From a virus: a stretch of 62,394 nt of DNA. The translations under genes were made by a program, and so were the position numbers. Below, in pieces: positions 155-62,394 of this stretch (positions are counted from its first letter, which is position 1; every line of letters starts with the position of its first letter). Below the pieces are notes generated by a model. It saw only the letters and a list, made by a program, of their open reading frames with translations, was not told where the DNA came from and did not search any database. Location: IMG/VR virus record IMGVR_UViG_3300003375_000002; one strand, 5' to 3'.

Positions 155-456
155 TTGATTCCCCAATCGTCAGAAACTTGAACTGCGAAAATCTCCGCTC
201 CAGCAGGAATATCGACATCTTCAACCGGGCGAAGATCTGCCTTGGCCTTCTTAGGATCTTCGATCATTCCCGCGAAACCGATACTCTCCCATTTGAAAAC
301 ATGAAGTGCACGAGAGAGCTTTATTCTGCCATTCTCCCGCGTGACGTCGCCAGCAAAAATCCATCCGCGATCGACGACGATCACTGCACGATTTCCATTG
401 CTCTTGACAGGAGCATATTCAACGCCATTGATTGTGATGATATTCGACATTTCCAT
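151..456 (-). CDS. Hypothetical early protein (101 aa)
   Basis: ORF track. GAGGAG Shine-Dalgarno upstream (a second ATG at 450 has better spacing). Stop overlaps the start of the repeat ORF. Confidence 0.7.
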   Translation of the reverse strand: MEMSNIITINGVEYAPVKSNGNRAVIVVDRGWIFAGDVTRENGRIKLSRALHVFKWESIGFAGMIEDPKKAKADLRPVEDVDIPAGAEIFAVQVSDDWGIK

Positions 457-463
457 TCTCCTC

Positions 464-3376: not shown

Positions 3377-4042
3377 ATGGAAGAGAAAATCGAAATCAAA
3401 AAGCGCCTTACCGGCGAGGTAATTTTTTCCGCCAGCATTGATTGCGAACCCGGCGCGCTGCCATCTGTTAAATTAGGTTTGGCCGTTATGTTGGCTATTA
3501 AAAGCCGCGCGTACCTCAGCCGCGCGGACCTCAGTGGCGCGGACCTCAGTGGCGCGGACCTCAGTGGCGCGGACCTCAGCCGCGCGGACCTCAGTGGCGC
3601 GAACTTCAGTGGCGCGAACCTCAGTGGCGCGAACCTCAGCCGCGCGGACCTCAGTGGCGCGAACTTCAGTGGCGCGAACCTCAGTGGCGCGAACCTCAGT
3701 GGCGCGGACCTCAGTGGCGCGGACCTCAGCCGCGCGTACCTCAACGGCGCGAACCTCAGCGGCGCGGACCTCAGCCGCGCGAACCTCAGCCGCGCGAACC
3801 TCAGCCGCGCGAACCTCAGCAGCGCGAACCTCGTTGATGGTGGTCAAAGATCAGACGGTTATCGTTTTATTGGGTGGGTGAAAGATTCAATCCTTCAAAT
3901 TCTCGCAGGTTGTCGCGATTTTTCAATTATTGAAGCGCGCGCGCATTGGCTTGCCACGCGCGGGGGGACGCCGCTTGGCGATGAAACGATCTGTATTCTA
4001 GATCACATCGAAGCTGTTGCAAAGATTCGCAAACTTATCTGA
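3377..4042 (+). CDS. Pentapeptide-repeat protein with a conserved C-terminal domain
   Basis: About 22 consecutive A(D/N)(L/F)S(G/R) pentapeptides. The C-terminal ~65 aa is shared with ORF 10107..10820. Confidence 0.9.
3505..3832 (+). repeat. Tandem 15-nt coding repeat (pentapeptide array)
   Basis: Near-identical units such as gcgcggacctcagtg / gcgcgaacctcagtg, read directly. Confidence 0.95.
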
Positions 4043-4097: not shown

Positions 4098-5057
4098 ATG
4101 TCGCACGAAGTTGAAACAATGGCCTACGCCAACGCAGTACCATGGCATGGTTTGGGCAACAAGGTCGACCCAAAAACGACCGTCGACGAAATGCTCGTCG
4201 CTGCTGGTCTTGATTGGCAGGTCAAGCTGCGTCCCCTTTTCGCCCAGACGGAAAACGGCGAAATGATCAAGCTGCCATTGCGGCGGGCGCTGGTCCGCAG
4301 TTCCGACAACAAGATCATGTCCGTCACTGGCGACATCTGGAAACCCTTCCAGAACAAGGACGCCATGGAATTCTTCCGCGACTACACTGAGGCCGGTGGC
4401 GCGCGGCTGGAGACAGCCGGCAGCCTTCATGGCGGAAAGTTGATCTGGGCTCTCGCCTCGATCAACGAGGGCTTTACCGTCAAGCGCACCGACCACACAA
4501 AAGGCTACATTCTGCTGACGTCGCCCCATGAAGTCGGCAAGGCCATCACTGTCCGCACCACGACAGTGCGCGTGGTCTGTGCCAACACGATGGCTATGGC
4601 CGTCAATGGATCTCAGGCGTCTTATTCGCAGAACCACCTGACGAAGTTCAACGCTGCCGCTGCCAAGGAGACCATCGTCCTCGCTCGCGCCCAAGTGCAT
4701 CAGGCGCACATCGATGCTCAGGCTCTGACTCAGCTGCAGCTAAGCGAATTCGACACTGTGCGTTTTCTGGCGCGCTTTTTTCAGCCTGCTCCTGAAGGCG
4801 TCAAGGAGGACGCCCATGCCGAAACCCTCCTCAATGTCCACAACGAGCGCTCCAAGGTCTTCGATGCCATTCTGAAGAGCGTCAACGATGCGCCGGGTGC
4901 CGATCCGGGCACAGGCTGGGGTGTGCTGAATGGCGTCACCCATTGGGCCGACCATGTCGCTGGCAACCAGTCTGCCGCCCGGCTCTACAACGCATGGCTG
5001 GGTGAGCGTGCCGCGACAAAGCTCAAGGTTCGAGATGCCTTGCTCCAGATGGTTTAA
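4098..5057 (+). CDS. DUF932-family phage/plasmid protein
   Basis: N-terminal MAYANAVPWHGLGN and later VVCANT motifs. Length and pattern match my memory of DUF932 (TIGR03299-like). Confidence 0.75.
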   Translation: MSHEVETMAYANAVPWHGLGNKVDPKTTVDEMLVAAGLDWQVKLRPLFAQTENGEMIKLPLRRALVRSSDNKIMSVTGDIWKPFQNKDAMEFFRDYTEAGGARLETAGSLHGGKLIWALASINEGFTVKRTDHTKGYILLTSPHEVGKAITVRTTTVRVVCANTMAMAVNGSQASYSQNHLTKFNAAAAKETIVLARAQVHQAHIDAQALTQLQLSEFDTVRFLARFFQPAPEGVKEDAHAETLLNVHNERSKVFDAILKSVNDAPGADPGTGWGVLNGVTHWADHVAGNQSAARLYNAWLGERAATKLKVRDALLQMV

Positions 5058-5073
5058 ACCTAAGCAATTGAAA

Positions 5074-5097
5074 GGCCGGAGAAATCCGGCCTTTTTC
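5074..5097 (+). terminator. Rho-independent terminator
   Basis: ggccgga gaaa tccggcc followed by ttttt. Confidence 0.8.
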
Positions 5098-5116
5098 CTG
5101 TTTTCAAAATCTCGGT

Positions 5117-5218
5117 TCCGTTTCCATTCTATAGGCATTTCTCACCTCTACAGACGACAACACAGAGAAAAAGAATTTTATATAGAGAAGGAAAACTGGG
5201 GTTAAGAATGGAAACGGA
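5117..5218 (+). promoter_or_regulatory. Conserved ~100-nt element, copy A (leader of the helicase gene)
   Basis: Gapless alignment to the reverse complement of 51452..51553 with a 26-nt identical core (5139-5164). Closed by the inverted repeat tccgtttccattct / agaatggaaacgga. Confidence 0.7.
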
Positions 5219-5248
5219 TCCAGCCGATGCAGCCCTGTTGAGGAGCCG

Positions 5249-6946
5249 ATGAACATCAAGATTGAGGGCAATCGCTGCCGAACGACCAGCGCTTACAATG
5301 TGAGGGTGCTGCGCGCATTGCCGAAACTCGAAGGGATGAAGCGCTGGGGCGCGGAGCGGACGCTCTCGTTCGAAAATACGCCTTACAATCTCGAAATTTG
5401 GCGCCAGACGTTCCCTGAGGCGACGATTGAGGGCGGAATGCCGATCGCGCCAACAGGCGTGGTCGCTGACGCCCTTTTCGACCTCAAGGGCGACCGCCCT
5501 AGGTTCGCCTACAGAACCCAGCCTAGAGCCCATCAGAGGGCCGCGCTTGAAAAGCTAGCTGGGAAACCGGCTGTCGGCCTTTTCATGGACATTGGCACCG
5601 GGAAAAGCTGGACAGCGATCGCGATGATCGGGATGCGCTGGTGCGCTGGTCAGTCCGAACACGTCCTGTTGATCGCCAAGAACGGAGTGCACCAGCAATG
5701 GGTGAGTGAACAGATCCCTCAACACATCAGTCCTGTTGTCCCTTGGAAGGCTTGGGTTTGGAAAGAGGGCAAGACTGCCGCAGCGAAATTTGAAACAATG
5801 CTCAAATTCGATGGCCTAAAGATTTTCGCCATCAACATCGACGCCATCAGAACGAAAAAGGCCGAAGCTTCCATCCTACGATTCCTTCAGGCGGCCAATG
5901 GAACTGCCACAATTATCGAGGACGAAAGTCAGGACATCAAAAATCTCTCGTCCGAGCGCACCAAGGCAGCCATAAAATTTCGCAAATTGTGCAAATATGC
6001 AATGATCATGACTGGCACCCCAATAGCCAAGGATCTTGTCGACCTTTTCAGCCAGTTCGCATTCCTCGACGAAAGTATCATTGGTCATCGATATATGACC
6101 ACATTCAAGAATCAATATTGTGTTTTGCAACCGAACCCATTCAGCCCCAAGCCCAAAGTCGTCGGCCACAAGAATGTTGAAGAGTTGTACAAGCGGATTG
6201 ATCCTTACATTTTCCGAATAACGACCGAAGAGGCTCTCGATCTGCCGCCCAAGGTTTTCATTTCCAGGCCATTCGTGTTGAGTGCCGAACAGATCAAAAT
6301 AATGAAGGACCTCAAGGAGCAATTTTTCTCCGATTTCGGAAATGACGACGCTGCATCAGTCAGAAACGCTGCATCCCTTTTGACCAAACTGCAGCAGGTC
6401 AGCTGCGGTTTTCTGCCGATGGATGATGGATCATTCCGCGAGTTGCCAAATCCTCGCCTCGACGAATTGATGACGATACTCGAACAGCGTGAGGGCAAGG
6501 CGATTGTCTGGTGCCGGTTCAATCGTGACATAATTAATGTCAAGAATGCATTGAACAAGATAGAGCCGGAAAGCGCAGTCGATTATTACGGCAAAACGAG
6601 TGCCGCGATGCGCGCCGAAAACAAAGACAATTTCCTCGATTCAAAATCCGGCGTCCGCTATCTCGTCGCTTCGCCAGAGGCTGCCGGCACCGGCCTCAAC
6701 CTGCAAGGCATCTGCCGGACGAATGTCTATTATTCCAACAGCTTCAATTCGCTCGCCCGTTGGCAGAGTGAGGGGCGCACATGGCGCGATGGAACCACTG
6801 GCACCGTCACCTATTTTGATCTGGTGGCGCGGAAAAGTCCAGACGCCAAAATCTTGGCCAATCTGCGAGCCAAGAAAGATATCAGCACTCTGACATTGGA
6901 CGACTATCGCAAGCTCCTGCTCATGGAGGAAGAAGATGAGATTTAG
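5249..6946 (+). CDS. SNF2/DEAD-like superfamily-2 helicase
   Basis: Walker A DIGTGKSWTA, DExx box IIEDESQD, MTGTP, AAGTGLNLQ, and motif VI QSEGRTWRDG. Confidence 0.85.
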   Translation: MNIKIEGNRCRTTSAYNVRVLRALPKLEGMKRWGAERTLSFENTPYNLEIWRQTFPEATIEGGMPIAPTGVVADALFDLKGDRPRFAYRTQPRAHQRAALEKLAGKPAVGLFMDIGTGKSWTAIAMIGMRWCAGQSEHVLLIAKNGVHQQWVSEQIPQHISPVVPWKAWVWKEGKTAAAKFETMLKFDGLKIFAINIDAIRTKKAEASILRFLQAANGTATIIEDESQDIKNLSSERTKAAIKFRKLCKYAMIMTGTPIAKDLVDLFSQFAFLDESIIGHRYMTTFKNQYCVLQPNPFSPKPKVVGHKNVEELYKRIDPYIFRITTEEALDLPPKVFISRPFVLSAEQIKIMKDLKEQFFSDFGNDDAASVRNAASLLTKLQQVSCGFLPMDDGSFRELPNPRLDELMTILEQREGKAIVWCRFNRDIINVKNALNKIEPESAVDYYGKTSAAMRAENKDNFLDSKSGVRYLVASPEAAGTGLNLQGICRTNVYYSNSFNSLARWQSEGRTWRDGTTGTVTYFDLVARKSPDAKILANLRAKKDISTLTLDDYRKLLLMEEEDEI

Positions 6947-9895: not shown

Positions 9896-10110
9896 CCATC
9901 CGCGACCGCATAGCACGGGCGATAGCGCCATACGAGCTAGAGCCGACGCCGGAGACACTGGCGACCGCTGATCGCGTGATTGAGGCGTTGCGCGAGCCGG
10001 GCGAGGCGACGATTGAACGGATGTGGGAGCGTTTCGTGTTCTCACCAAGTCTGACGGCGATACAAACGAGATTGCGCGCCGCCTACGCGGCCATATGGAG
10101 CGAGAAATGA
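9892..10110 (+). CDS. Hypothetical protein (72 aa)
   Basis: ATG at 9892 overlaps the previous stop (ATGA). First gene of the GC-richer block. Confidence 0.6.
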   Translation: MTIRDRIARAIAPYELEPTPETLATADRVIEALREPGEATIERMWERFVFSPSLTAIQTRLRAAYAAIWSEK

Positions 10111-10820
10111 GCGAACAACGCAAATACGAATTTACCGGCGAAACCAAGGAATGGTGCGGCATCACGTTGCGCCAAATCCGCGCCGTTCGCGCGATTGGTT
10201 GGATCGCTGCCGGAACTGTTGGCGGCTGGATCGAAAGTGAAGAAAATCTCGATCAAGTTTCCGGCAATGCGTGGGTCTACGGCAATGCGTGGGTCTACGG
10301 CAATGCGTGCGTCTCCGGCAATGCGCAGGTCTCCGGCAATGCGTGGGTCTCCGGCAATGCGCGGGTCTACGGCAATGCGCAGGTCTCCGGCAATGCGTGG
10401 GTCTTCGGCAATGCGTGGGTCTACGGCAATGCGTGGGTCTACGGCGATGCGCGCGTCTACGGCGATGCGCGCGTCTCCGGCGATGCGTGGGTCTCCGGCA
10501 ATGCGCGGGTCTACGGCAATGCGCAGGTCTCCGGCAATGCGTGGGTCTTCGGCAATGCGTGGGTCTACGGCAATGCGCGGGTTGTGTCAAAAATTATCGT
10601 TGCAACGCGATCTGACGGCTACACGTTTTTACTAACCCCCGACAAAGACAATATTTTGCGGATTATCGCGGGTTGTCGGTATTTCGACATTGAACAAGCG
10701 CGCAAACATTGGCGCGAAACGCGCGGCGGAACGCAATTAGGCGACGAAAGCCTAGCGATTGTCGATCATTTGGAGCGCATGGCTAAGATTTGCGGGCTTA
10801 TAAATGGAGGCGACAAATGA
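10107..10820 (+). CDS. Hexapeptide-repeat (G-N/D-A-x-V-x) protein with the same C-terminal domain as 3377..4042
   Basis: About 18 consecutive hexapeptides (GNAWVY GNAWVY GNACVS GNAQVS ...). C-terminus is RSDGYTFLL...ILRIIAGCRYFDIEQARKHWRETRGGTQLGDESLAIVDHLERMAKICGLI. Confidence 0.85.
   Translation: MSEQRKYEFTGETKEWCGITLRQIRAVRAIGWIAAGTVGGWIESEENLDQVSGNAWVYGNAWVYGNACVSGNAQVSGNAWVSGNARVYGNAQVSGNAWVFGNAWVYGNAWVYGDARVYGDARVSGDAWVSGNARVYGNAQVSGNAWVFGNAWVYGNARVVSKIIVATRSDGYTFLLTPDKDNILRIIAGCRYFDIEQARKHWRETRGGTQLGDESLAIVDHLERMAKICGLINGGDK
10259..10582 (+). repeat. Tandem 18-nt coding repeat (hexapeptide array)
   Basis: Units such as tccggcaatgcgtgggtc / tacggcaatgcgtgggtc, read directly. Confidence 0.95.
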
Positions 10821-11376: not shown

Positions 11377-11591
11377 CCCGCCGCCCCGCCACGCGCCAGC
11401 AAGTCGCGCGCGCGATAGCCGCGATAGAGGCCATTGGCAAGCCGGTTGCCGCCGTGTCTGTCCACAAGGACGGGACAATCACGGTTCGCATAGGCGATCC
11501 GCTGGACAGGTCAACCGAGAGCCGCGACGATGCCGAATTTGAAAATATCATCGCCGGGGCGAAACATGGTCAGAATCGCCATGCGAATTAG
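11373..11591 (+). CDS. Hypothetical protein (72 aa) directly upstream of the integrase
   Basis: ORF track. ATGA overlap start. Confidence 0.55.
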   Translation: MTRRPATRQQVARAIAAIEAIGKPVAAVSVHKDGTITVRIGDPLDRSTESRDDAEFENIIAGAKHGQNRHAN

Positions 11592-12621
11592 GTATGTGCA
11601 AATCATCCGATCCAAGGGGATCGAGTTTGCCTATTACCGGCGCGACGGTCGCCGTGTGCCGATCAAGGCGCGTCCGATTGCGTCGCCAGCCTTTGCCGCC
11701 GAGGTTGAGGCAATCGAGAAAGCATGGAAAACGACGCCGATTCCCGCGCCCAAGAACACGGTTGGCGTTTTGATCGCGGCTTATAAGAAATCCCCGCGCT
11801 GGAATGAAATCAAGCCCGCGACCCGGGCAAGCTATGAGCGCGCCTTTGCTGCGCTTAAGCCATTGGAGAATTTCCCCGCCGCGTCGCTGGATCGCCCCAA
11901 GATTTTCCGCTTTCGGGATTCCGTGGTGTTCCCAAAAAATGGCCGATGGATGGCGAACTATGCCGTGACCGTTCTAGGGCTGCTGCTGGCCTTTGGCGTT
12001 GACGCTGGCATGGTCAAGGCCAACCCCCTTGCCGAGCCCGTCAGGAAGCTACGGAAGGCCAAGGGAAGCGCAAGGGCGAATAGGCCATGGACCGCCGAGG
12101 AACGCGCCGTGGTGCTCGCCGAGGCCCCTAACCATGTCTTACTGCCCTTGGCCCTGCTGATGACAACCGGGATGCGGAAGGCCGATGTGTTCAAGGCCAC
12201 GCTAGGCGCGATCAAGGACGGCATGATTTCCGTCAGGACCAGCAAGACAGATCAACTGGTTTCCCTGCCCGTTCACCCCGTTCTGGCGTCCGCGTTGGCG
12301 ACGCGCCCGACCGCCCGGAGCCTCCAAATCGCCCTGAACAGCGACAAGAAACCTTGGACGCCGGATGGTTTCGATACCGTATGGCATAGGTTCCGAGGCC
12401 GCTTGGAAGCCGAGGGCAAGGTTGCGCCCGGGCTGACCCTGCATGGCCTTCGCCACACTCTCGGGACGCTCTTGAAAGAAGCCGGGCTAGACGACGGCGC
12501 GATTGCGGACGTTCTAGGCCAATCATCAACCAGCATGGCCCGGCATTACAGCCGGGAGGCGCAACTATCGACGGACACGAAAGCCAAGGTCCGGGCGATC
12601 AATTTTGGAGGCGGCAAATGA
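11566..12621 (+). CDS. int: Tyrosine recombinase / phage integrase
   Basis: C-terminal catalytic region LHGLRHTLGTLL...MARHYS (R-H-R-Y type). Start chosen at ATG 11566 (GGGG 7 nt upstream); 11581 is also possible. Confidence 0.85.
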   Translation: MVRIAMRIRYVQIIRSKGIEFAYYRRDGRRVPIKARPIASPAFAAEVEAIEKAWKTTPIPAPKNTVGVLIAAYKKSPRWNEIKPATRASYERAFAALKPLENFPAASLDRPKIFRFRDSVVFPKNGRWMANYAVTVLGLLLAFGVDAGMVKANPLAEPVRKLRKAKGSARANRPWTAEERAVVLAEAPNHVLLPLALLMTTGMRKADVFKATLGAIKDGMISVRTSKTDQLVSLPVHPVLASALATRPTARSLQIALNSDKKPWTPDGFDTVWHRFRGRLEAEGKVAPGLTLHGLRHTLGTLLKEAGLDDGAIADVLGQSSTSMARHYSREAQLSTDTKAKVRAINFGGGK

Positions 12622-12884: not shown

Positions 12885-13073
12885 AAGTGGCAAACCAAAG
12901 TGGCAAACCGTAGAAGCGAAATTTAAGTTATTGGTGCCCGGGGGCGGAATCGAACCACCGACACTGCGATTTTCAGTCGCACCCTACGCGCGCCGCATCA
13001 ATTACTTAGCCGAAAACCAGAATGGCAAACGGCCCAAAACGGCCAATAGGTTGCGCGAGATTTGGCAAACCGG
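12885..13073. other. attP-like module 1: tRNA-Phe 3' fragment flanked by TGGCAAAC repeats
   Basis: AGTGGCAAACC twice in tandem (12886-12909), the tRNA fragment at 12932-12981, then atGGCAAACgg (13021-13032) and tTGGCAAACc (13061-13072), all in the same orientation. Lies next to int. Confidence 0.6.
12932..12981 (-). other. 3' portion of a tRNA-Phe(GAA) (anticodon arm to CCA); not a complete tRNA
   Basis: The reverse complement reads TGCGA CTGAAAA TCGCA GTGTC GGTGG TTCGATT CCGCC CCCGGGC ACCA. No D-arm or 5' acceptor strand upstream. Confidence 0.8.
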
Positions 13074-29393: not shown

Positions 29394-31016
29394 TCAATTC
29401 GGTGCAATGGTTGTGACGTTTGTTCCTGATATCGAGTTTGCAGCCCATGTTTGAGTTGTCGTTCCGACATTGCCTTTCATGTTCGGACCGATAACTGCAT
29501 TCGCAACATTTGACAATGTCGCGATAAAAGTGTTTGTGCTGACTGTCGCCATCGCGACATTGTAAGCAACAAGGAGCTCTCTCACATTGTCTATATAAAA
29601 AACATAATTGCTGGCAGATCCATCATCATACCAGTAATTGTTTGTTATGATCATCGCTTCAATCCATGGCGATCCGCCAGTGTTGACGGAAACTCCGAAA
29701 TGAGCTAGATTCATGCCATTGTTTGTTATGATGATTCTTCCATAAGAGCCGACGCTGCCTGCCCTTGAAAAAGACATGCAGGCTGTCGCGCAAGCTCCAT
29801 CGAATGTGTTGTAGCCGATGAAGAGTTGGCCTGTGTTTATTGTTTGGCCAGAGTTTGATCCGCCTGCAAGCACAGCGTAGATTCCGAAAAAGCTGCTCAA
29901 GCAAGTGTTGTTGATGAAATGAAACCCGCCAGAGCTGTTCCACTGAACGCAAGCAGTAGATGTCCCAGGAATTCCTTGAATATAAGAGTTTGTGACCTTG
30001 CTGTCGCCGGCATCTCCAAGGCCATAGCCGCCGTCGCCTGTTTCCGCAACGATTATTCCTGCAGAGCTGTAATTTAGACATTTTAGATTGTCAATATTCC
30101 ATGCGAATGCTGCAACTGTCGTGAAACAGGTTGATGCATTCCGGATGACAAGGTCTCGGAAAATAGACTGAGAATTGCCTGCGCCGGTCGGTCCAGTAAG
30201 TGAGATTGCAAATTTACCAGAATTTGCTGCGCCGACATAAATAATGCCGAATTGCTCGAAAACAACAGGCAGATTTGTGTTTACGTCGATGCCATCAATC
30301 GCGACCGAAGGCTGGATAACTGTCGCGTTTCCGCCTCCGCCGACCATCTGGCAAGAGCCAGAAAATGAAAGAGGCGAAGAGGTAATTGATGTTCCAGGAC
30401 TCGCTTCAACGCGGCCATTTGTTGCCTGACACTGATTGACTGCAGCTTGCCAAGCTGTTGTGTCGTCTGTTCCATAATAAAAAATCTTTCCGCTGACAGT
30501 CGTAACAGCTGCAGCGGCAAGCGTAACTGCATGTGCACTAACATAAGCAGAAATTGTCGTTTCGAATGTTGCCCCAGCAGATCCTGCTCCAGATATTCGA
30601 ATCGTTTTATTCACATCTGCATTCGTAAATGTCGCAGAAGCAGAAGTGAAAGCAGTTGATGATGCATTTACAGCACCGTCAGAAAATCCTATCGTGTTCG
30701 TGACTGCGCCATAATCTGTCGGGCTTAGATGAAGAGTCAGGAGCTTGGCGTTGACATTTGAAGTGACTGCGCCGGTTCCCGCCTGCGTAAACGGAATGCT
30801 CGTGCCAGGAAATGTTCCTGTCAGAACGCTCGTCGGGATCGTCGTCGCGAAACTCGCCGCGCTCGCGCCATTGCCATAGAAATAACCAGTTTTCGAAGGA
30901 GTGTAGAAATTTCCATTGACGGTTGTGTTATTGTACGTCGGCGAAGGATAAGACTGAGCCAGCGCCACAGACGCTGCAAAAAGCCAGATCAAAAATGAGC
31001 GACCAAGCATGTTCAT
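29394..31016 (-). CDS. Right-handed beta-helix (pectate-lyase-fold-like) protein with a signal-peptide-like N-terminus; depolymerase/tailspike candidate
   Basis: N-terminus MNMLGRSFLIWLFAASVALAQSYPSPTYN. Long Gly/Asn/Thr-rich repetitive body. Paralogue of 31299..32945. Confidence 0.6.
   Translation of the reverse strand: MNMLGRSFLIWLFAASVALAQSYPSPTYNNTTVNGNFYTPSKTGYFYGNGASAASFATTIPTSVLTGTFPGTSIPFTQAGTGAVTSNVNAKLLTLHLSPTDYGAVTNTIGFSDGAVNASSTAFTSASATFTNADVNKTIRISGAGSAGATFETTISAYVSAHAVTLAAAAVTTVSGKIFYYGTDDTTAWQAAVNQCQATNGRVEASPGTSITSSPLSFSGSCQMVGGGGNATVIQPSVAIDGIDVNTNLPVVFEQFGIIYVGAANSGKFAISLTGPTGAGNSQSIFRDLVIRNASTCFTTVAAFAWNIDNLKCLNYSSAGIIVAETGDGGYGLGDAGDSKVTNSYIQGIPGTSTACVQWNSSGGFHFINNTCLSSFFGIYAVLAGGSNSGQTINTGQLFIGYNTFDGACATACMSFSRAGSVGSYGRIIITNNGMNLAHFGVSVNTGGSPWIEAMIITNNYWYDDGSASNYVFYIDNVRELLVAYNVAMATVSTNTFIATLSNVANAVIGPNMKGNVGTTTQTWAANSISGTNVTTIAPN
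30931..31002. repeat. 72-nt segment identical to 32866..32937
   Basis: Compared base by base. Encodes the shared N-terminus SFLIWLFAASVALAQSYPSPTYN. Confidence 0.9.
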
Positions 31017-31298: not shown

Positions 31299-32945
31299 TC
31301 AATCAATCTGATAAGTTATGTGGATGACGTAGCTGTAAGGAGCGCCTCCTGTGAAAGTTCCATTAAAAAACTGCGCAGTCAGCGTGCTCGAACCCTGTAT
31401 CGCCTTGATCGCGAGAGCGTAGCCAGTTCCTTGTGTCTCGACGCCGCTTCCAGCCGTGTAGTGATTTGAATTGTTCGCGATTGGGAGGTTTATCGAAAGG
31501 TAGGATGTGCATGACGAGTTTGCTGTCTGCTGGATCTGCAAGTCCAAATTGACGGTCTTATAATTGACGGTGTACTGGCCCGCATTTGTGGTCGTGAAGG
31601 TTCCCGACCCGCTTCCGCAGGTTACCGTTGGCGTATATGAAACCGGCGTATTTTGATTTGTCTGGCCATTGGTTGTTGTCCAGAACAAAGTGCTCCCGGT
31701 TCCGATTGTTGGAAGCGGAGTGCCATTGGTAACATCGTATCCAATAATCTGATTTTGGACCGCGGCGTAAGTGCCGGAACCTGTCCCCTCACTCAAAACG
31801 CCATTGGACCCCGGAGAAAGGTGCACGAAGGTGTTGGCGTTGGCACCTCCATACAAATATCCGGTTTGAGAGGTCGCGCGCAGAACGACACCATACCCAG
31901 AACCCGTCGTGTAGTTTCTGACGTTTATAAAGGTATTGTTGTCGCAAAATTTGCAATCAATACCGTGACCATTCGCGGTCAGCGTATCGATGTTTTCAAA
32001 TGTATTGAATGAGACATTTCCCGAAAATGTTGTGCCGTCGCTTTCGAGGGACAGCGCCGGTGCGCCGCTAGCCGACACGTCAATTGTCCGAACGGAAATA
32101 TTCCGAAACAGATTCATCTGTGTCCCAGTCGGATCGCCGCCAGCTGCATTTGTCGCGATCCTGATCGCCTTGCCGGTTGTGAGCGGGTTCGCGGCCATCA
32201 AATTTTCAAAATCGCCGCCGTACCAATTCACAATTTCAAGGCAAACTGCAGCTAGGCTATTGCAGTCAAATTTGATTTGAGAGACTCCGCCACGCGAACG
32301 ATTCCAAGCTGACGCGCCGCCAGTAAATGAAAACGAAACCATCGTGCCGCCAGACGACCCGGCCCATATAAATCGGGTGCCATTCGGCGCGAACGATACG
32401 TTATGATTGGAGTCCCCGCCGCAGCCCTGCAATTTTACGTTAGTGGTGTTCACGACAAGCCCGCTCGCGAGCTTATACTGTCCGCAACCATAAACGACTA
32501 CCGTACCTGCGCCGCTCAATGCGTAAGAATCGGCCTGATTGATCGCGTTTTGCCAAGCCGTTGCGCTGTCGTTGGTTCCTGTCGGATCGGCGCCATAAGC
32601 GTCGGCCGGAAGAAAAATGTCCTTGAAAATGTTGGAAGTTGGGGTCTGCACCCCCCCTGTCCCGGCAGGCGTCCATACGGCGCTCAGGGACCCGCCGTAT
32701 AAAAGCGTACTGACGCCGTCTGGCGCAGCTCCCGTAAGAAAACCGCTTGTTCCATTTACCGCGTTGCCGAGCGCGGATGCGACGCCGGTTCCTGGCCCAA
32801 TAGCCGAAATAGGCGAGCTTCCATTGCCAACAATAAGACCATTTTTACTTGTAAGGGTAATTGTGTTGTACGTCGGCGAAGGATAAGACTGAGCCAGCGC
32901 CACAGACGCTGCAAAAAGCCAGATCAAAAATGAGCGAATGAACAT
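31299..32945 (-). CDS. Second beta-helix protein with the same signal-peptide-like N-terminus
   Basis: ATG at 32945 after GAGGGGAAA. MFIRSFLIWLFAASVALAQSYPSPTYN. The body is rich in parallel beta-helix-like turns. Confidence 0.6.
   Translation of the reverse strand: MFIRSFLIWLFAASVALAQSYPSPTYNTITLTSKNGLIVGNGSSPISAIGPGTGVASALGNAVNGTSGFLTGAAPDGVSTLLYGGSLSAVWTPAGTGGVQTPTSNIFKDIFLPADAYGADPTGTNDSATAWQNAINQADSYALSGAGTVVVYGCGQYKLASGLVVNTTNVKLQGCGGDSNHNVSFAPNGTRFIWAGSSGGTMVSFSFTGGASAWNRSRGGVSQIKFDCNSLAAVCLEIVNWYGGDFENLMAANPLTTGKAIRIATNAAGGDPTGTQMNLFRNISVRTIDVSASGAPALSLESDGTTFSGNVSFNTFENIDTLTANGHGIDCKFCDNNTFINVRNYTTGSGYGVVLRATSQTGYLYGGANANTFVHLSPGSNGVLSEGTGSGTYAAVQNQIIGYDVTNGTPLPTIGTGSTLFWTTTNGQTNQNTPVSYTPTVTCGSGSGTFTTTNAGQYTVNYKTVNLDLQIQQTANSSCTSYLSINLPIANNSNHYTAGSGVETQGTGYALAIKAIQGSSTLTAQFFNGTFTGGAPYSYVIHITYQID
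32866..32937. repeat. 72-nt segment identical to 30931..31002
   Basis: Compared base by base. Confidence 0.9.
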
Positions 32946-32952
32946 TTTCCCC

Positions 32953-48600: not shown

Positions 48601-48785
48601 TTGGATGTTCCTGTCTTTCGCGCTTCTGATTCAAAGCGCTCAAGGCCAATCTTCGCAGCCTCGTCATCGCTCTTGGCGAAAATCCTGTAGCTTTTGTTCA
48701 TTGACAATGGCAATGCAGCACGAACATTCACCTGCCACAGCATTGGGCTGATCAGATCAACAGTCGCCTGCGCAGGGATTTTCAT
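48591..48785 (-). CDS. Hypothetical small protein (64 aa)
   Basis: ATGA overlap with the terL stop. Confidence 0.5.
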   Translation of the reverse strand: MKIPAQATVDLISPMLWQVNVRAALPLSMNKSYRIFAKSDDEAAKIGLERFESEARKTGTSKCQ

Positions 48786-50416
48786 GATGGATACAATGCC
48801 GAGGGAGGCTTGCCGATGTGGCGCATGCTGTCATTGATCTCATTCAAGCGTTCAGGCGCACGCTGAAGCAGTCCGAGTTCGCGCAAATGACGCAAGGCCA
48901 TCGACACAGTGTCGACGAGATCGTCGTGCTTGCCTTTCGGGAAAACAGCAACCTGAGTAATGACCATATCTGCCCAGCTCATGTCTGGCGCCCAGATCAT
49001 CCCTTCAGCGAATAAATGCTGAACAGAATAGAGCCTGCTCAATTTGTCAATCGTTTTTGGATCATACATTCTTACGGCGAAATCTTCATTGCCGAACAAG
49101 CGCCTCAACTCTTGAGCGACAGAGTGACCAGCTGCCTTATTTTCAATCAAGATCATGTCGACCTTGAATTTCTTGCATGTTGTGGCAACCTTTTCGACCA
49201 ACTCATGGAGCTCAAGCCGCTGCTGCCAAGCGTTCATCAGCATGACATTCGGCGCACCCTCAGCATACACTCGCTCTATCTGCTGAGGACGACCATTGTG
49301 GCCAATGATCTTGTTGGCATGGGCGACAACGTCGTTAGTAAACACACCCCAAACACTCAAGGCGCTGAAGTCGTTCTCCTGCTTGGTGGTGTAGGCAGTG
49401 TCGAGGCTCGCCACAACAAAGTCCATCGGCGGAAATGTCTCGCTGTTCCACAGCGCCCACCATTCGCGCTTGATTACGCCGCCGCCCTTCACTTCTGGTC
49501 TTTGCTGCAACTGGCCTGCAGCCGCATAAGGGCCGAGCGTGCGCTCAAGCAACTCAACTTCGTCGTCGCCAAATCGATCGGGCCAAAGGAGCTCGCCCTC
49601 CTGTGTGCGCCAATCTTGCCAGCCTATTGATGTCACGAATGATCTGTCTGACTCATAACGCATCGGCAAGCAAAGATGTGTCCAGTCGCCAATGTCCTTG
49701 CTCAAGATGTGGCCTGTTAGATCGTCCTCAGCGAGGCGCTGCTGAATGACGATGAAGGCGCCAGTCTTGGGATTGTTGAGGCGGGTGCTCAAGGCGCTGT
49801 CCCACCAATCGATGGTTGTCTGAATTGTGGCTTCGCTGAATGCCTCTTGAGCAGCATTCGGATCGTCAATGATGATGATGTCGCCGCCTTCACCCGTCAG
49901 CGTCGATCCGACAGATGTGCAAAGGCGTGATCCAGTTCTGCTATTGTCGAAGCGCGTCTTTGTGTTTTGGTCTGAAGTGAGACGGAAATTTTGCCCCCAA
50001 TACTTCTGATACCAAGGACTTTCGATCAATCTCCGACATTTCACAGAATCTCTCAAGCTCAGCATCTGTGAGTATGAAGCATGCAAGAAGTGAGCGCCCG
50101 GCCCAGAGGTCGGCGATGTGCGCCTCTGTGCCCAGACCCACGCAGGAAATGAGACCGAAGTCATCGAGGATTTCGACATACGCGGCGGAATGTTGATGAT
50201 GAGTCGCTTGATGTCGCCGGAGCATACTGCCTCCAGATGTTCGCAGACTGCGTGAAGCGGCTTGCCGTCCATGAATGGCGAAGGATCAAAATATTTCCAA
50301 CCTGCCTTGAAGAATTCGTACAGGCTCTCTTCGTATTCGAGCCTCTCCAATTCAATCAACAGATCTTCTGGCGTAATTCCTTCGAGCGCGGAACTGAAAT
50401 CAAACGCCGCACTCAC
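48782..50416 (-). CDS. terL: Terminase large subunit
   Basis: INIPPRMSKSS (Walker A-like), GGDIIIIDDP (Walker B). C-terminal RNaseH-like nuclease segment ASLDTAYTTKQENDFSALSVWGV. Confidence 0.85.
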   Translation of the reverse strand: MSAAFDFSSALEGITPEDLLIELERLEYEESLYEFFKAGWKYFDPSPFMDGKPLHAVCEHLEAVCSGDIKRLIINIPPRMSKSSMTSVSFPAWVWAQRRTSPTSGPGAHFLHASYSQMLSLRDSVKCRRLIESPWYQKYWGQNFRLTSDQNTKTRFDNSRTGSRLCTSVGSTLTGEGGDIIIIDDPNAAQEAFSEATIQTTIDWWDSALSTRLNNPKTGAFIVIQQRLAEDDLTGHILSKDIGDWTHLCLPMRYESDRSFVTSIGWQDWRTQEGELLWPDRFGDDEVELLERTLGPYAAAGQLQQRPEVKGGGVIKREWWALWNSETFPPMDFVVASLDTAYTTKQENDFSALSVWGVFTNDVVAHANKIIGHNGRPQQIERVYAEGAPNVMLMNAWQQRLELHELVEKVATTCKKFKVDMILIENKAAGHSVAQELRRLFGNEDFAVRMYDPKTIDKLSRLYSVQHLFAEGMIWAPDMSWADMVITQVAVFPKGKHDDLVDTVSMALRHLRELGLLQRAPERLNEINDSMRHIGKPPSALYPS

Positions 50417-50913
50417 TTGATCACCTTGTAGCTCGGCTCTGATTCGTCCTTGCCTTGGAGCTGGGCGACAAGCGTTCTGCGCAGTTGCGAACGCGCTTCA
50501 GCAGTCAATTGCGAGAGATCGATGCGCTGAGTGTTGGTCACATTGGCATTGATGTCCTGCGTAACACGCTCGCCGTATTTGCGCGGGTTCATCTTTGAAG
50601 CGTGCCAGCGTCGAGCGTCCATCCTGTTTCTCGCCATAGGAACATTGGTGTCGTCGTCTGCAATCTCAACAGTTTCATCAGCATAATAATCGGCTTGCAT
50701 CTGCTTTGAACGCGCGTATTTCTCGTAGAGTTTTGGGTCCTCAAGGATCCATCCCATCAACGCGCTATACTCAGGCATTCCTGGTTCTTTGCAGATCTTC
50801 GTTAACGCAACGCCATTCGCCATTCTATGCATGGCTGCATCAAATTTCACCTGATCAAATTTGCGAGACTCAAGGAACACTTCTCGCGGGCGTCGATTTC
50901 TCGTCCCAGCCAT
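50413..50913 (-). CDS. terS: Terminase small subunit
   Basis: GVALTKICKEPGMPEYSALMGWI ... YARSKQMQADYYADETVEIADD matches the common terS pattern. ATGA overlap with terL. Confidence 0.7.
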   Translation of the reverse strand: MAGTRNRRPREVFLESRKFDQVKFDAAMHRMANGVALTKICKEPGMPEYSALMGWILEDPKLYEKYARSKQMQADYYADETVEIADDDTNVPMARNRMDARRWHASKMNPRKYGERVTQDINANVTNTQRIDLSQLTAEARSQLRRTLVAQLQGKDESEPSYKVIK

Positions 50914-51001: not shown

Positions 51002-51424
51002 TCAAGACAACAAATTTTCCTTTAGCCAAAAGGAAACCTGCTCTTTCATCTTTTCAGGCTCGCCCGAGAGCTCCAAGCATTCACCAATGGAATAGCCCTT
51101 TTTCCAATCACTCATGCGCCTGCCATTGATCAGCGCTGGAATCCATTTGATCTTGCTCAAATTTGAAATCCCGATCAGCATCGCCGAAACGCCACCTGCG
51201 TCCGCGAATGTCCTGTGCCAAGCTATCTGAACCGGCCGCACTTCATTCGGATAAATTCGACCGCTCTTCAATTTCCCAACTTTCAATTCAATTGGCAAAA
51301 CTCTCCCAGAAACCAAAATCTGAATATCGGGAATTCCAATCCCACCTCCAGTCCTCGGCTCGTAACTTTCCAGCCAACCGGACCAGCTTGACCTAAGCCA
51401 TCTTTTAAAATCAATTTCATTCAT
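51002..51424 (-). CDS. VRR-NUC / PD-(D/E)xK nuclease
   Basis: GIPDIQILVSGRVLPIELKVGK (PD...E-x-K) and a downstream Q..W. ATG at 51424 after GGAGGG. Confidence 0.75.
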   Translation of the reverse strand: MNEIDFKRWLRSSWSGWLESYEPRTGGGIGIPDIQILVSGRVLPIELKVGKLKSGRIYPNEVRPVQIAWHRTFADAGGVSAMLIGISNLSKIKWIPALINGRRMSDWKKGYSIGECLELSGEPEKMKEQVSFWLKENLLS

Positions 51425-51451
51425 CAAAAAACCCTCCAAAACCCGAAAAGT

Positions 51452-51553
51452 TCCATTTCCAATCTGGAACCAATTTTCCCTTCTCTAGATAACTTTCTTT
51501 TTCTTTGTGTTGTCGTCTGTAGAGGTGAGAATTATGTTTAGAATGGAAATGGA
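51452..51553 (-). promoter_or_regulatory. Conserved ~100-nt element, copy B (leader of the VRR-NUC gene)
   Basis: The reverse complement aligns without gaps to 5117..5218. The 26-nt identical core is at 51506-51531. Closing arms are 51452-51465 / 51540-51553. Confidence 0.7.
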
Positions 51554-51600
51554 TCCAGCGATTTCTCAATGATTTCAATGCAAGCTTGACCTGAGCCATT

Positions 51601-53886
51601 TCACATCGCCCGCCTCAGGACCTCATCGGCCGATTTCACCATTGACCTCACCTCATTGAAAAAATCGGCCTTTCTAAGCTTGAGCTTGTCGGTACTTTCA
51701 TCCGTTTGTCGACCCAAGATCGCCTCCTGACGAATCAATTTGAGCCCAAATTTCTCCTTCAATTGGTCAAATGCAGCCCTGTTCATTCCAACCAATTGGA
51801 GCCTGTCATTGACCTTTAAACGATCGTCCGTCCATATCACGCCGCATTCTTTCATGACCTTGCGCAGATCGAGATCAGTGTCGAAACTGTTCCTCCTAGA
51901 ATTGTTTTCGTTGACCCAGGAGGCGATGTCTTTCATGCCGAGGGCGACCGGATCCTCCCGACAATTCATCGCCTCAGCGAGCTCTGCAGCCTCTTGCTGG
52001 CCTTCGGAGCGCGAGGAGATGATCAATTCCTTTTTCCGCTCAGTCATCGGCGCAGGCTGGCCAGCGGTGACGTAATCCTTGAAATTCTCTGCCCAATAGC
52101 GAATGACCGAAGGACCACCCGACTGCAGCCAATTGTGAAAGCTGTCGAAGCGCTCACGCGGCCATTTGTCCTCAGTCACCTCGGGATAGAACCATCGCCG
52201 ATCGCTCTCCTCAACCTTGAGCGCCCGCAATGAATTGGAGCAAGCGAACATATGGCACCAATTTTCAACAGTGTAAGTTCGCTGGAATTTCTCGTTGACT
52301 TCAACGGTTCTGTCGGTGATGGCTGATTTCAATTTGTTGTAAGCCTTCCACGAATGACCGGAATAAATCTCATTGACGATGCAGAGGCGCTTGTTGGCCA
52401 GCCAACCGTTGAATTCGCTTTGAACGATAATTCCTTCGGTCGGATAGCTGACGTTTGAAGCGCCAACGAGCGGAGCGAGGATCGACGAGCCGAGGGTTGT
52501 CTTGCCGACGCCTTGCTGCTCGCTCACCAGCAGCAGCCCATATTCCATATGAATATCCGTCCGAGCGATCAGCGTCGCGCACCACCTCATCACCTCATAA
52601 CGCTCGCTCTCATTGGGGAACATGTAGGTCATGAAATCGATGAATGGCTTGATTGAGCCTGCCCGAGACTTGATGGAGGTCGGAGTGTGAAGATTGATGG
52701 CAGAGTTGGATCCGTCATTCACTTTGCGCCCTTTTATATCAGGACGATAGCACATGCGGACGGAATTGCCAGTGTATGCCTTCACAATCAGCGAGCATGT
52801 CGAATTGGTATGGCTGAATGAGGCAAGCATTTTATTCAGCACAGGCTCGGAGCGAATGATCTCTGGCATCTCCGAGCAGACGAACAAATCTGACTCTTCG
52901 ACGTAGGCCCACATGTCCTTGAAATTATCGCGGAGGATTGTTGTGGGCTTGCCTTTTGGATTGGGAACTTGGTCGGTCGCCCATGTGGCCGGATAGAGGC
53001 ATGATCGGAAACTCGGCCCGACATAAAAGCGCTGACCTTCGATGACCTTGAACATTGAGGCAGGGAATTCGTCCGCCAGATCGAAGCCTCCCGGCCATTC
53101 TGTCGAGAATTGAACATGCATTGTCGGTATGCGCAGGTGGAAGGCGATTGAGGGCACCGCCGCCACACCCGGTGCATCATTGTCACTGACGATGTAGGCG
53201 CGCTTGACGCCTGCCTTTTTGAGCGCTGACCAATCTGTCCGGCCCGGCGACAATGCGCCGCCGATCCACCCCACATGCGCGGCAGCCTTCATCTCCTCGC
53301 CCCAAGGATGAGCAGCGCATGCTGCCCGAGCCTCCGGCGTCTCACCCTCGACCATCCAGCGCATGGCGCGAGCAGCCTTGGCTCCTTCATGGATGAAAAC
53401 GGTCGACTGATCCTTCAATTGATCAAGACCCCAGAGCGGCAAATTGCCTTCCGGCTCCATGCGGCGCCACTCATCATCGTCCCAATAGGTCAGCGGAATG
53501 TAGGACCGTTCGCCCTTGCGCTCAATCCGCACTTGGACCATGATGATCTTGCCGTCAAGATCCTTAAATTGAAAAACATCCTTCTCTGGAACATTCCTGA
53601 ATTCCTCCGGCAGATCGATCATCCTCGGCAGCAGTTTCATCTTCGGCCATGAGACAGTGGCGCATTCGGCTTCAATGGCTGCCTTTTCGAGCTCGCTCGG
53701 CGCGTATTCTGGCGGGGCGACGACCTTTCCTTCGGGCGTAATGGAAATGATCGCCACATCGCGCCAATATTTCCCGCTCATCTCGCGGACAGCCGCCTTG
53801 CGCATTGAACGCGGTTCAGCGCCAATCCGCTTCAAATACGAATTGACAGAGTTTATATCAGCCAGCGAACGGATTTTCATTGACAT
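51601..53886 (-). CDS. Primase-helicase (Toprim domain plus SF3/D5-type NTPase)
   Basis: FIHEGAKAARA and IVSDNDAPG (Toprim E and DxD). Walker A SEQQGVGKTT. Start moved to ATG 53886 (AAGGGA Shine-Dalgarno) because a small upstream ORF occupies 53909..54082. Confidence 0.8.
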   Translation of the reverse strand: MSMKIRSLADINSVNSYLKRIGAEPRSMRKAAVREMSGKYWRDVAIISITPEGKVVAPPEYAPSELEKAAIEAECATVSWPKMKLLPRMIDLPEEFRNVPEKDVFQFKDLDGKIIMVQVRIERKGERSYIPLTYWDDDEWRRMEPEGNLPLWGLDQLKDQSTVFIHEGAKAARAMRWMVEGETPEARAACAAHPWGEEMKAAAHVGWIGGALSPGRTDWSALKKAGVKRAYIVSDNDAPGVAAVPSIAFHLRIPTMHVQFSTEWPGGFDLADEFPASMFKVIEGQRFYVGPSFRSCLYPATWATDQVPNPKGKPTTILRDNFKDMWAYVEESDLFVCSEMPEIIRSEPVLNKMLASFSHTNSTCSLIVKAYTGNSVRMCYRPDIKGRKVNDGSNSAINLHTPTSIKSRAGSIKPFIDFMTYMFPNESERYEVMRWCATLIARTDIHMEYGLLLVSEQQGVGKTTLGSSILAPLVGASNVSYPTEGIIVQSEFNGWLANKRLCIVNEIYSGHSWKAYNKLKSAITDRTVEVNEKFQRTYTVENWCHMFACSNSLRALKVEESDRRWFYPEVTEDKWPRERFDSFHNWLQSGGPSVIRYWAENFKDYVTAGQPAPMTERKKELIISSRSEGQQEAAELAEAMNCREDPVALGMKDIASWVNENNSRRNSFDTDLDLRKVMKECGVIWTDDRLKVNDRLQLVGMNRAAFDQLKEKFGLKLIRQEAILGRQTDESTDKLKLRKADFFNEVRSMVKSADEVLRRAM

Positions 53887-53908
53887 TTTCCCTTGGGCAT
53901 TTGTTGGA

Positions 53909-54082
53909 TCAATTCTTCCGCTTGTGCTTTTTGATTCTTGGCTCTGATTTATAATCATTGTCGCTGCCAGAATAATATATATATTTGAACTTAAAAATGT
54001 TCACTTTGTGTGAACTAATCAGCGGACCCTTCCACTTTTCCTCGCACCAGAGCTTGATCTGTTCGGCTGTCATATCAATCAT
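53909..54082 (-). CDS. Small ORF (57 aa), not in the ORF track
   Basis: My translation: MIDMTAEQIKLWCEEKWKGPLISSHKVNIFKFKYIYYSGSDNDYKSEPRIKKHKRKN. Fills the gap between the TM ORF and the primase. Confidence 0.4.
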   Translation of the reverse strand: MIDMTAEQIKLWCEEKWKGPLISSHKVNIFKFKYIYYSGSDNDYKSEPRIKKHKRKN

Positions 54083-62217: not shown

Positions 62218-62394
62218 TCAAAAAATTCTTCGCATTCTGTTTGACGAAATTGTTCCTTGACCGTAGCCGTAGCCGTAGCCGTAGCCGTAGCCGTAGCCGT
62301 AGCCGTAGCCGTTGCCGTCGCCGTAGCCGTCGCCGTAGCCGTTGCCGTTGCCGTCGCCGTAGCCGTCGCCGTAGCCGTAGCCGTAGCCGTCGCC
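62218..62394 (-). CDS. Gly-X dipeptide-repeat protein, C-terminal part (enters from the window end)
   Basis: My translation: GDGYGYGYGDGYGDGNGNGYGDGYGDGNGYGYGYGYGYGYGYGYGQGTISSNRMRRIF then TGA at 62220-62218. Confidence 0.6.
   Translation of the reverse strand, partial: GDGYGYGYGDGYGDGNGNGYGDGYGDGNGYGYGYGYGYGYGYGYGQGTISSNRMRRIF
62262..62394. repeat. Tandem 6-nt coding repeat, same family as 1..130
   Basis: Direct reading. The last 34 nt equal the first 34 nt of the window. Confidence 0.95.

Follow-up and report, generated by a model that had tools for sequence, protein, structure and literature searches.

A palindromic, iteron-like DNA element at the apparent breakpoints of a 16-kb inversion in an uncultured phage family: a candidate replication origin

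We analyzed a 62,394-nucleotide stretch of viral DNA, IMG/VR record IMGVR_UViG_3300003375_000002 (hereafter the window), and found that an imperfect palindrome of 100-120 bp, present once before an SNF2-family helicase gene (copy A) and once, in inverted orientation, before a nuclease gene that opens the packaging module (copy B), looks from its sequence like a cis-acting DNA element and not like an RNA gene. We tentatively read this element as an iteron-type replication origin that doubles as a recombination junction, a reading that draws on its anatomical likeness to known origins and to which we give a probability of about 40%. A preliminary description of the same DNA had reported the repeated element, and its interpretation is partly supported here; it could not see how the element is distributed across the family, how its iterons are laid out, that the copies evolve in concert, or that they mark inversion breakpoints.

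The two copies form the longest inverted repeat found by a repeat search of the window (arms 5114-5218 and 51452-51556, 105 nt, 82% complementary), in line with the earlier estimate of about four-fifths identity. The perfect 26-nt core noted before, TTCTCACCTCTACAGACGACAACACA, occurs exactly twice, at 5139-5164 (+) and 51506-51531 (-), and has no match in 100 shuffles even with three mismatches permitted. Each copy is closed by an inverted repeat of the length first described (13-14 nt), paired at 14/14 positions in copy A (TCCGTTTCCATTCT / AGAATGGAAACGGA) and at 13/14 in copy B (TCCATTTCCATTCT / AGATTGGAAATGGA); relative to copy A, a G-to-A change in the 5' arm of copy B is offset by a C-to-T change in its 3' arm. 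The distance to the next start codon, given earlier as about 30 nt, is 30 nt from copy A to the SNF2 ATG at 5249 and 27 nt from copy B to the ATG at 51424. Copy B starts 47 nt past the stop codon of a gene encoding a primase fused to an SF3 helicase, and copy A lies 18 nt downstream of an intrinsic terminator, which the preliminary description had also recognized. Its statements that the element heads a replication or repair gene each time, and that it is conserved at the nucleic-acid level, likewise held. The copies and the features that adjoin them are as follows (ORF, open reading frame).

5114-5221 (+): copy A, the whole palindromic unit including an outer GG..CC extension; covariance-model match 5110-5224, 81.3 bits
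5117-5130 (+): 5' arm of copy A, TCCGTTTCCATTCT, tandem TTCC-core hexamers
5139-5164 (+): 26-nt core of copy A, identical in both copies and CU-rich; it holds CAGACGACAACACA, which is private to the window's lineage
5165-5204 (+): A/G-rich, AT-rich centre and 3' inner half of copy A (GAGAAAAAGAATTTTATATAGAGAAGGAAAAC...), within the 0.5-1% of genome stretches that melt most easily
5205-5218 (+): 3' arm of copy A, AGAATGGAAACGGA, tandem GGAA-core hexamers
5070-5095 (+): intrinsic terminator after the DUF932 gene, outside the repeat; in relatives it stays with DUF932, not with the element
5208-5252 (+): upstream ORF of 14 codons, beginning with the ATG inside the 3' arm of copy A; its stop overlaps the SNF2 start (ATGA)
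51449-51556 (-): copy B, palindromic element; covariance-model match 51446-51560, 81.1 bits
51540-51553 (-): 5' arm of copy B, TCCATTTCCATTCT
51506-51531 (-): 26-nt core of copy B
51452-51465 (-): 3' arm of copy B, AGATTGGAAATGGA, with one mismatch to its partner arm
51424-51456 (-): 10-codon upstream ORF that starts in the 3' arm of copy B; its stop overlaps the downstream start (TGATG)

The internal anatomy of the element is that of two opposed iteron arrays around a weak centre. A closing stem is present in every copy, with a span of 99-126 nt, arms of 10-23 bp and arm sequences that are specific to each lineage; stems of such geometry are essentially unique to the element, shuffled windows giving 0-1. 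Tandem hexamers make up both arms, those of the 5' arm reading (TTTCCR)n and those of the 3' arm (YGGAAA)n. Mapping of the motif places two adjoining TTCC-core hexamers and a third about 18 nt further inward in each half, mirrored opposite. In 18 representative copies the 5' side holds 2-3 TTCC-core hexamers and the 3' side 2-3 GGAA-core hexamers, and their spacing is conserved. Thus, among the three options that the preliminary description had offered (promoter, structured leader or small RNA, protein-binding site), the last fits best. Between the arrays lies a purine-rich centre of about 50 nt, which is (GA)n in many packaging-side copies. The GC content of the element is 37-43%, compared with about 52% for the genome, and its centres fall in the top 0.5-1% of the least stable 40-100-nt windows of the genome.

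No other iteron-organised region was found in the window, and the AT-rich gap between the DnaE and primase genes, considered as an alternative origin, contains small ORFs and no repeats. DnaA-box, CtrA and GANTC sites, integron attC core sites, and sigma-70 and EcfG-type (GGAAC-N16-CGTT) promoters were compared with the copies by eye, and none gave a consistent fit. A third arm-like sequence, AGAGGAGAATGGAAATG at 446-459 (-), directly follows a strong terminator (505-472, -) and constitutes the Shine-Dalgarno sequence and start codon of a 101-residue gene (456-151); as a third copy it was rejected, its frequency being at chance level, although it shows that the arm motif can serve translation start. 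Chance would also suffice to produce the 25-nt resemblance of the copy B flank to positions 1454-1478.

We then asked how widely the element occurs. Related sequences were retrieved as loci, which carry L-numbers here, and the window's own copies A and B are referred to as winA and winB. In deposited phages, near and distant BLAST searches found no DNA match to the element or its neighbourhood, and the closest of these phages is 36% identical at the SNF2 protein. An exact 26-mer scan of IMG/VR gave no match because the closest contig differs inside the core; 18-mer scans of metagenome and genome collections recovered true copies solely in the window's phage population, the other 17 loci being chance matches, with no copies in bacterial genomes or unrelated contexts. 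A search of IMG/VR with the single SNF2 protein was empty, and the relatives were retrieved with an alignment query. Among these relatives, SNF2 identity falls from 97% straight to 66% or less, and every relative whose SNF2 protein is at least 57% identical has a related element upstream of the gene.

A covariance model across relatives, as the preliminary description had proposed (alignment A3, 17 copies), shows that both the element and its stem are conserved, where a lack of such conservation would have counted against that description: upstream of SNF2 it scores 72-102 bits in all of the at least 20 relatives, and a weak match of 29 bits is still seen in L059 and L062, whose SNF2 proteins are 35% identical. 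On the packaging side, the element lies about 1 kb upstream of TerL in L077, L122, L130, L132, L139 and L144-147, and also occurs in L072 (81.5 bits). The nuclease gene that follows copy B, hereafter VRR-Nuc-like, is found in just 12 of 80 terminase loci, and the element stands directly before it in 10 of the 11 carrier loci for which upstream sequence is available; in L003 and L007 the primase gene runs straight into the nuclease gene and the element is absent. Copy number is two in the window and one or two in the relatives, at junctions of core modules. Most relatives have a sole copy, flanked by DUF932 and SNF2, and about 16 kb separate it from the primase gene.

To analyze the palindrome quantitatively, we scored a ladder of 36 base pairs on an alignment of 24 copies (A6) against a null of 500 column shuffles. 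The ladder cells are paired in 75.7% of cases, compared with 67.3 +/- 1.0% after shuffling, and the covariation score is 0.313 compared with 0.169; no shuffle reached either observed value (0/500 in both cases). Shifted registers of the ladder pair at only 35-60%, and 26 of the 36 pairs have changed on both sides. The complementarity extends to lineage-specific inner segments, such as ACCCCC/GGGGGT and TACGGATT/AATCCGTA.

The kind of mismatch that the stem tolerates bears on whether RNA or DNA is under constraint. Structured RNAs usually tolerate G.U pairs and purge A.C. In the ladder of 18 representatives, however, mismatches that would pair only in the sense strand (G.U, 45) are matched by those that would pair only in the antisense strand (A.C, 51; p=0.61); the outer stem gives 16 and 18, and an independent census, in which folding was performed with G.U forbidden, gives 10 and 11. 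With a CU-rich strand facing a GA-rich one, a few G.U and A.C mismatches in the inner part will arise by chance, but the outer stem is equally balanced. This balance indicates that the constraint is probably on Watson-Crick pairing, and therefore on DNA and not RNA, and it weakens the earlier suggestion of a structured 5' leader or small RNA. Sense and antisense strands fold equally well across the family; better folding of the antisense strand is true in the window and does not extend to the family. Scanned against Rfam at gathering thresholds, the element matched no family, in keeping with the preliminary description, which had recognized no named RNA family in it, and permissive E-values returned solely hairpin noise of the microRNA-precursor type, at 11-23 bits compared with thresholds of 40-200.

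The two sites do not evolve independently. Nearest neighbours cross site types within one phage or metagenome sample (winA-winB 0.81, L044A-L122B 0.87, L051A-L077B 0.73, L043A-L146B 0.70), while copies from different lineages reach a similarity of merely 0.5-0.65, and rare arm variants are common to both sites, for example GTTTCGG/CCGAAAC in L043 and L146. At the paired cross-site loci the similar DNA is confined to the element and ends at sharp boundaries, the flanks of the two copies being unrelated. We infer that the copies stay alike because of recombination between them.

A comparison of gene orders provides a trace of such an event. The junctions in the window (E, element) are DUF932|E|SNF2 and primase|E|VRR-Nuc, while those of another lineage are primase|E|SNF2 and DUF932...|E|VRR-Nuc: in L042-44 it is the primase gene (67% identical), not DUF932, that adjoins the element upstream of SNF2, with the element abutting the primase stop codon, and in L146 and L122 a DUF932 gene (70% identical) precedes the element, which is followed by VRR-Nuc, TerS, TerL and portal genes. 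All four combinations of upstream and downstream partners are thus found around the element. Reciprocal junctions of this kind are expected if the segment of about 16 kb between the inverted copies had flipped, and the element therefore appears to be a recombination junction. From these gene orders, the early/replication segment between the copies is apparently inverted in the sister lineage, with the copies as its breakpoints. The six near-identical contigs of the window's population (L001, L009, L013, L019, L020, L023) all have the window arrangement, so there is no sign of frequent switching. An invertible segment of the Gin/Hin/Cin type was considered and rejected: these six contigs have a single arrangement, and the genes scanned, in a scan that was not exhaustive, included a tyrosine integrase (11530-12621) but no serine invertase.

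How could one short element serve both sites? In the origin reading, the primase-SF3 helicase (51601-53958) would bind the hexamer iterons through its C-terminal domain, assemble on both sides and open the central region, as in the replicons of Staphylococcus aureus pathogenicity islands (SaPI) and of the P4 type. Copy A on the SNF2 side, in all relatives, would be the ancestral site and copy B a second site travelling with the VRR-Nuc-like gene; recombination would keep the two similar because they are inverted repeats. Both the origin function and the binding by the primase-helicase are proposed by analogy. A structural model of the C-terminal 200 residues (predicted local distance difference test score, pLDDT, 82.5) matches almost solely winged-helix proteins in Foldseek, and in the window the cumulative GC skew has a minimum plateau at 3-8 kb, with copy A inside it, and a maximum about half a genome away amid co-oriented genes.

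Several observations weigh against an origin. The best Foldseek match has E=0.09 and none is significant, leaving the winged-helix assignment without statistical standing, and the skew signal is weak evidence, since L032 shows a local minimum alone and L033 none. Adjacency to the putative initiator gene holds for copy B and L042-44, not for copy A or most relatives. Rather than simply AT-rich, the centre is A/G-rich, less stable sites exist in the genome, and the complementarity also spans the inter-iteron spacers, which simple iteron binding does not need. Finally, the element invariably runs up to the next start codon, in the orientation of that gene, a placement that suits transcription or translation control equally well, and the equivalent position in L112 is a divergent promoter region, which again suits a control element equally.

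Such control is the essence of a plausible, though on the whole unlikely, alternative, that the element is an operator-flanked promoter region governing transcription of both the SNF2 operon and the late, VRR-Nuc/terminase operon, where a phage regulator would bind the inverted hexamer arrays flanking a promoter in the A-rich centre and switch both operons together. The element indeed stays with its downstream gene irrespective of the upstream neighbour, which may be DUF932, primase or small ORFs; because copy A follows a terminator, SNF2 requires a new start site or read-through; and the VRR-Nuc gene of L112, first after a divergent AT-rich intergenic region, is the head of an operon. DNA-level constraint and lineage-specific arms common to both copies also suit regulator binding sites, the SNF2 operon encodes small proteins of helix-turn-helix or winged-helix type, and TATA-like stretches occur in the centres of many copies, with an exact TATAAT in L077 and L005. 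In contrast, a consensus scan called no sigma-70-type promoter in either copy. The -10-like TATATA (A) and TATCTA (B) of the preliminary description are present in the sequence, in the central region, but neither the -10-like hexamer nor any -35 is conserved, no hexamer pair being shared across the family alignment; L047 and L049 lack the T-rich hexamer altogether, many packaging-side centres are plain (GA)n, and the promoter proposed earlier, ACGACA-N19-TATATA, falls in a lineage-private segment and is not supported. Complementary spacers would be superfluous for operators. We consider it distinctly improbable that the element is instead a structured RNA leader, a long hairpin transcribed with the downstream gene that would control translation or be cut by RNase III, its CU-rich 5' strand sequestering the GA-rich 3' strand together with the start of a translationally coupled leader ORF. 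At every site the element points in the direction of transcription, the covariance model scores 72-102 bits in sense compared with 29-60 in antisense, and z-scores for folding lie between -2 and -9. In L047-50 the 3' arm adjoins or overlaps the start codon of SNF2, and in L042-44 it starts a real ORF of 66-70 residues; upstream ORFs beginning at the (A/G)TG of the arm stop between -4 and +1 of the main ATG in winA, winB, L039, L045, L047, L051 and L072; and the UCACCUC of the core resembles an anti-Shine-Dalgarno sequence, the 3' strand a Shine-Dalgarno sequence. Yet this coupling reaches only about p=0.01-0.05 against a null of 0.25-0.3 and is absent in L035, L052 and L048-50. In the window both main genes have strong Shine-Dalgarno sequences of their own outside the hairpin, and the strong terminator 18 nt before copy A leaves no room for a promoter between them. 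The lack of a G.U excess, the equal folding of the antisense strand across the family and the purely generic Rfam hits also argue against an RNA.

Harder still to credit is a cruciform substrate, in which the SNF2 translocase would extrude the palindrome and a dimeric VRR-Nuc junction nuclease would cut it, the programmed break starting recombination-dependent replication or driving inversion between the copies; if true, this would be a self-contained cassette of site plus enzymes, not described for phages. The copies do sit directly before exactly these genes, with a linkage of 100% for SNF2 and 10/11 for VRR-Nuc, complementarity is constrained at the DNA level with the spacers included, the element indeed served as a recombination breakpoint, and unrelated palindromes lie beside VRR-Nuc or packaging genes in L005 and L151. 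However, an unpaired centre of 40-50 nt disfavours extrusion from duplex DNA, the VRR-Nuc assignment is weak, most relatives carry the element without an adjoining VRR-Nuc gene while L003 and L007 have the gene without the palindrome, and ordinary homologous recombination between 100-bp repeats suffices for the inversion. That the element is a selfish miniature mobile element, resembling a miniature inverted-repeat transposable element, or a functionless repeat, is barely credible. It is short, with terminal inverted repeats, sharp boundaries and unrelated flanks, and in L003 and L007 the primase and VRR-Nuc genes meet without a spacer; against this, its position upstream of SNF2 is syntenic down to 35-57% protein identity, with compensatory evolution, there are only 1-2 copies per genome, no target-site duplication is visible at either copy, and the 18-mer scans found no copies in bacterial genomes or unrelated contexts.

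The window is a circularly permuted (or closed) phage genome, and each copy therefore sits in one of two divergent arms. A Gly-Tyr-rich repeat gene (-) spans the window ends: positions 1-153 and 62262-62394 are GCCGTA/GCCGTC/GCCGTT hexamer repeats of this one gene, which starts at about 153 (-). The genes form the two arms from starts near 1350-1392, the minus arm really beginning near 1327. The genes next to the element are:

4098-5057 (+): DUF932 / TIGR03299 gene, upstream partner of copy A
5249-6946 (+): SNF2-family helicase gene, downstream of copy A
51002-51424 (-): PD-(D/E)XK nuclease, VRR-Nuc-like, first gene of the packaging module
50413-50913 (-): TerS, after the VRR-Nuc-like gene
48782-50416 (-): TerL, after TerS and followed by the portal and structural genes
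51601-53958 (-): primase-helicase fusion, the helicase being SF3 (D5/P4-alpha-type); the C-terminal ~200 residues form a domain that is probably winged-helix; candidate initiator

The primase-SF3 helicase matches PF19263, PDB entries 6k9c/6k9e (E=8e-9) and, weakly, TIGR01613 (P4-family). The gene after copy B had been called VRR-NUC in the preliminary description. That assignment is half borne out: the protein has PD-(D/E)XK motifs, invariant as E...GxPD...ExK...Q, and a weak profile match (E=0.006) to the solved VRR-Nuc structure 4qbo, but no Pfam VRR-NUC match. The 4qbo protein is among the dimeric VRR-Nuc proteins that cleave four-way junctions (PMC4103454). In the gap between the nuclease gene and TerS, 50994-50938 (-) holds a sigma-70-like promoter match (TTGCAA-N16-CATAAT) followed by a GC-rich hairpin, which by its sequence is a candidate late promoter, attenuator or pac-region feature.

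Individual lineages show further structures around the element or at the equivalent positions. The covariance model also picks out, after the VRR-Nuc gene of L005 (5665-5775), an analogue with unrelated arms, with perfect 25-bp arms and a TATATATAAT centre. Near nuclease and terminase genes, L151 carries an unrelated palindrome at 2764-2850 with 31-bp arms containing GGTGAC repeats, and L148 (599-688) and L153 (2227-2360) carry paired TGTTTCACGTGAAACA palindromes at equivalent positions. In L059/L062 an extra perfect 16-bp inverted repeat, CTAGGTTCCAAGTTCC / GGAACTTGGAACCTAG (2264-2279 / 2416-2431), encloses the terminator and the element and ends at the SNF2 Shine-Dalgarno sequence. In L035 (2341-2385) and L045-L050 (about 2348-2400) the 5' arm of the element doubles as the 3' half of an upstream hairpin (for example GACGGAAACGGT...ACCGTTTCCGTC), which occupies the place of the DUF932 terminator in other lineages; these loci have three copies of the motif and two mutually exclusive pairings. 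The ORF of 66-70 residues between element and SNF2 in L042 (2305-2518), L043 (2317-2518) and L044 (2308-2518) is Cys-rich, with C-x-C ... C motifs and no Pfam match; its start codon is, or adjoins, the ATG of the element's 3' arm, and it shares 17 nt with the beginning of SNF2. In other lineages the short upstream ORFs likewise open with ME(T/M)E, and these may be what remains of it.

Elsewhere in the window, the gene for a DnaE-type DNA polymerase III alpha subunit (54253-57843, -) encodes an intein (PF14890) at residues ~744-928. A tyrosine integrase gene (11530-12621, +) lies close to a tRNA-like sequence (12935-12993, -) that is barely at the Rfam tRNA threshold (29.7 bits) and received no ARAGORN call; the region may be an attP with a tRNA fragment. 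L032, the syntenic relative in which the corresponding arm was examined, shows no integrase there. An 84-nt direct repeat, 94% identical (30931-31014 / 32866-32949), forms the shared 5' ends, and thus the N-termini, of two adjoining minus-strand genes of 540 and 564 residues, and it may reflect duplication of a signal or anchor sequence in tail or receptor-binding proteins. Long tandem DNA repeats make up the genes for a pentapeptide-repeat protein (3377-4042, +; 15-nt period, ~20 copies) and a phrog_7964 protein (10023-10820, +; 18-nt period, ~18 copies), and two tandem paralogues of pyrimidine-dimer DNA glycosylase (Pyr_excise; 1753-2229 and 2226-2636, +) have a 55-nt repeat in common (1980-2034 / 2354-2408).

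The phage family to which the window belongs is uncultured and known from metagenome assemblies alone, as hundreds of contigs, with no cultured relative above 36% identity at SNF2. The element is the first conserved non-coding feature defined for it, and the covariance model detects it reliably. Should the element be an origin, it would, together with the primase-helicase, make a minimal replicon for a phage group without genetic tools; it would also offer a testable specificity code between iterons and initiator, and an SF3-helicase origin of a bacterial virus that has the form of a true palindrome. Irrespective of function, a short cis element in two copies appears to be the hinge of a 16-kb inversion, through which the early and replication arms acquire new partners among the SNF2 and packaging operons while no gene is broken.

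It is instructive to compare the element with known systems. Like lambda nutL/nutR and HK022 putL/putR, it occurs in two related copies, one per divergent arm, that are co-oriented with transcription and lineage-specific in sequence. The nut and put sites, however, act as RNA, while the element lacks RNA-type wobble tolerance and any similarity to boxA/boxB; moreover, copy A comes after a terminator rather than before one, and most relatives have a single copy. Palindromic origins are familiar from viruses with an SF3 helicase or a helicase-initiator, namely the pentanucleotide palindrome of site II in simian virus 40, the E1 binding site of papillomaviruses, and oriS/oriL of herpes simplex virus. 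There, as in the element, short motifs are arranged with dyad symmetry, in those viruses by or around an A/T-rich melting region; some genomes have more than one copy, and in herpes simplex virus inverted copies are linked to genome isomerisation. These are eukaryotic viruses with unrelated sequences and proteins, and the likeness is architectural only.

In behaviour, the closest counterpart is found in T4-type phages, whose PeSL (promoter-early stem-loop) cassettes are intergenic. Each is a promoter/stem-loop module about 100 bp long, its end lying at a Shine-Dalgarno sequence and ATG, and PeSLs are points of homologous exchange (PMC2839356, PMC4122927). The element is likewise intergenic, about 100 bp long, a stem-loop repeated in the genome that reaches to the Shine-Dalgarno sequence and ATG of the next gene, and reshuffles flanking modules without breaking genes. 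A PeSL, in contrast, has a sigma-70 consensus promoter and a short GC-rich terminator stem, while the element is one long AT-rich palindrome with hexamer arrays; PeSLs occur in dozens of copies in hyperplastic regions, the element once or twice at core-module junctions; and PeSLs mostly mediate insertions, deletions and mini-circles, while the element apparently mediated a large inversion.

In anatomy, P4 and the SaPIs offer the nearest comparison. P4 needs two separated iteron regions, ori and crr, both bound by the same alpha protein. As in the origins of SaPIs and other phage-inducible chromosomal islands and in P4 ori/crr, the hexamers of the element stand at least two per side, opposed, around a central region, with sequences specific to each element. 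SaPI origins have penta- or hexanucleotide iterons, at least two per side in opposite directions, around an AT-rich centre, and lie immediately downstream of the rep ORF; the SaPI initiator is a self-loading SF3 helicase whose winged-helix C-terminal domain binds the origin and which can be fused to a primase (PMC9371898). Copy B and the element of L042-44 are likewise right downstream of the primase-SF3 helicase ORF. Unlike SaPI, the universal copy is beside SNF2 and not the primase-helicase, the halves are complementary through the inter-iteron spacers and make a true long palindrome, and the centre is purine-rich, with (GA)n in many copies. The iteron sequences are unrelated, and the winged-helix domain that SaPI initiators have is a putative one in the helicase of the window. 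With these differences, the anatomy of the element is, by analogy, closest to that of a SaPI/P4-type iteron origin.

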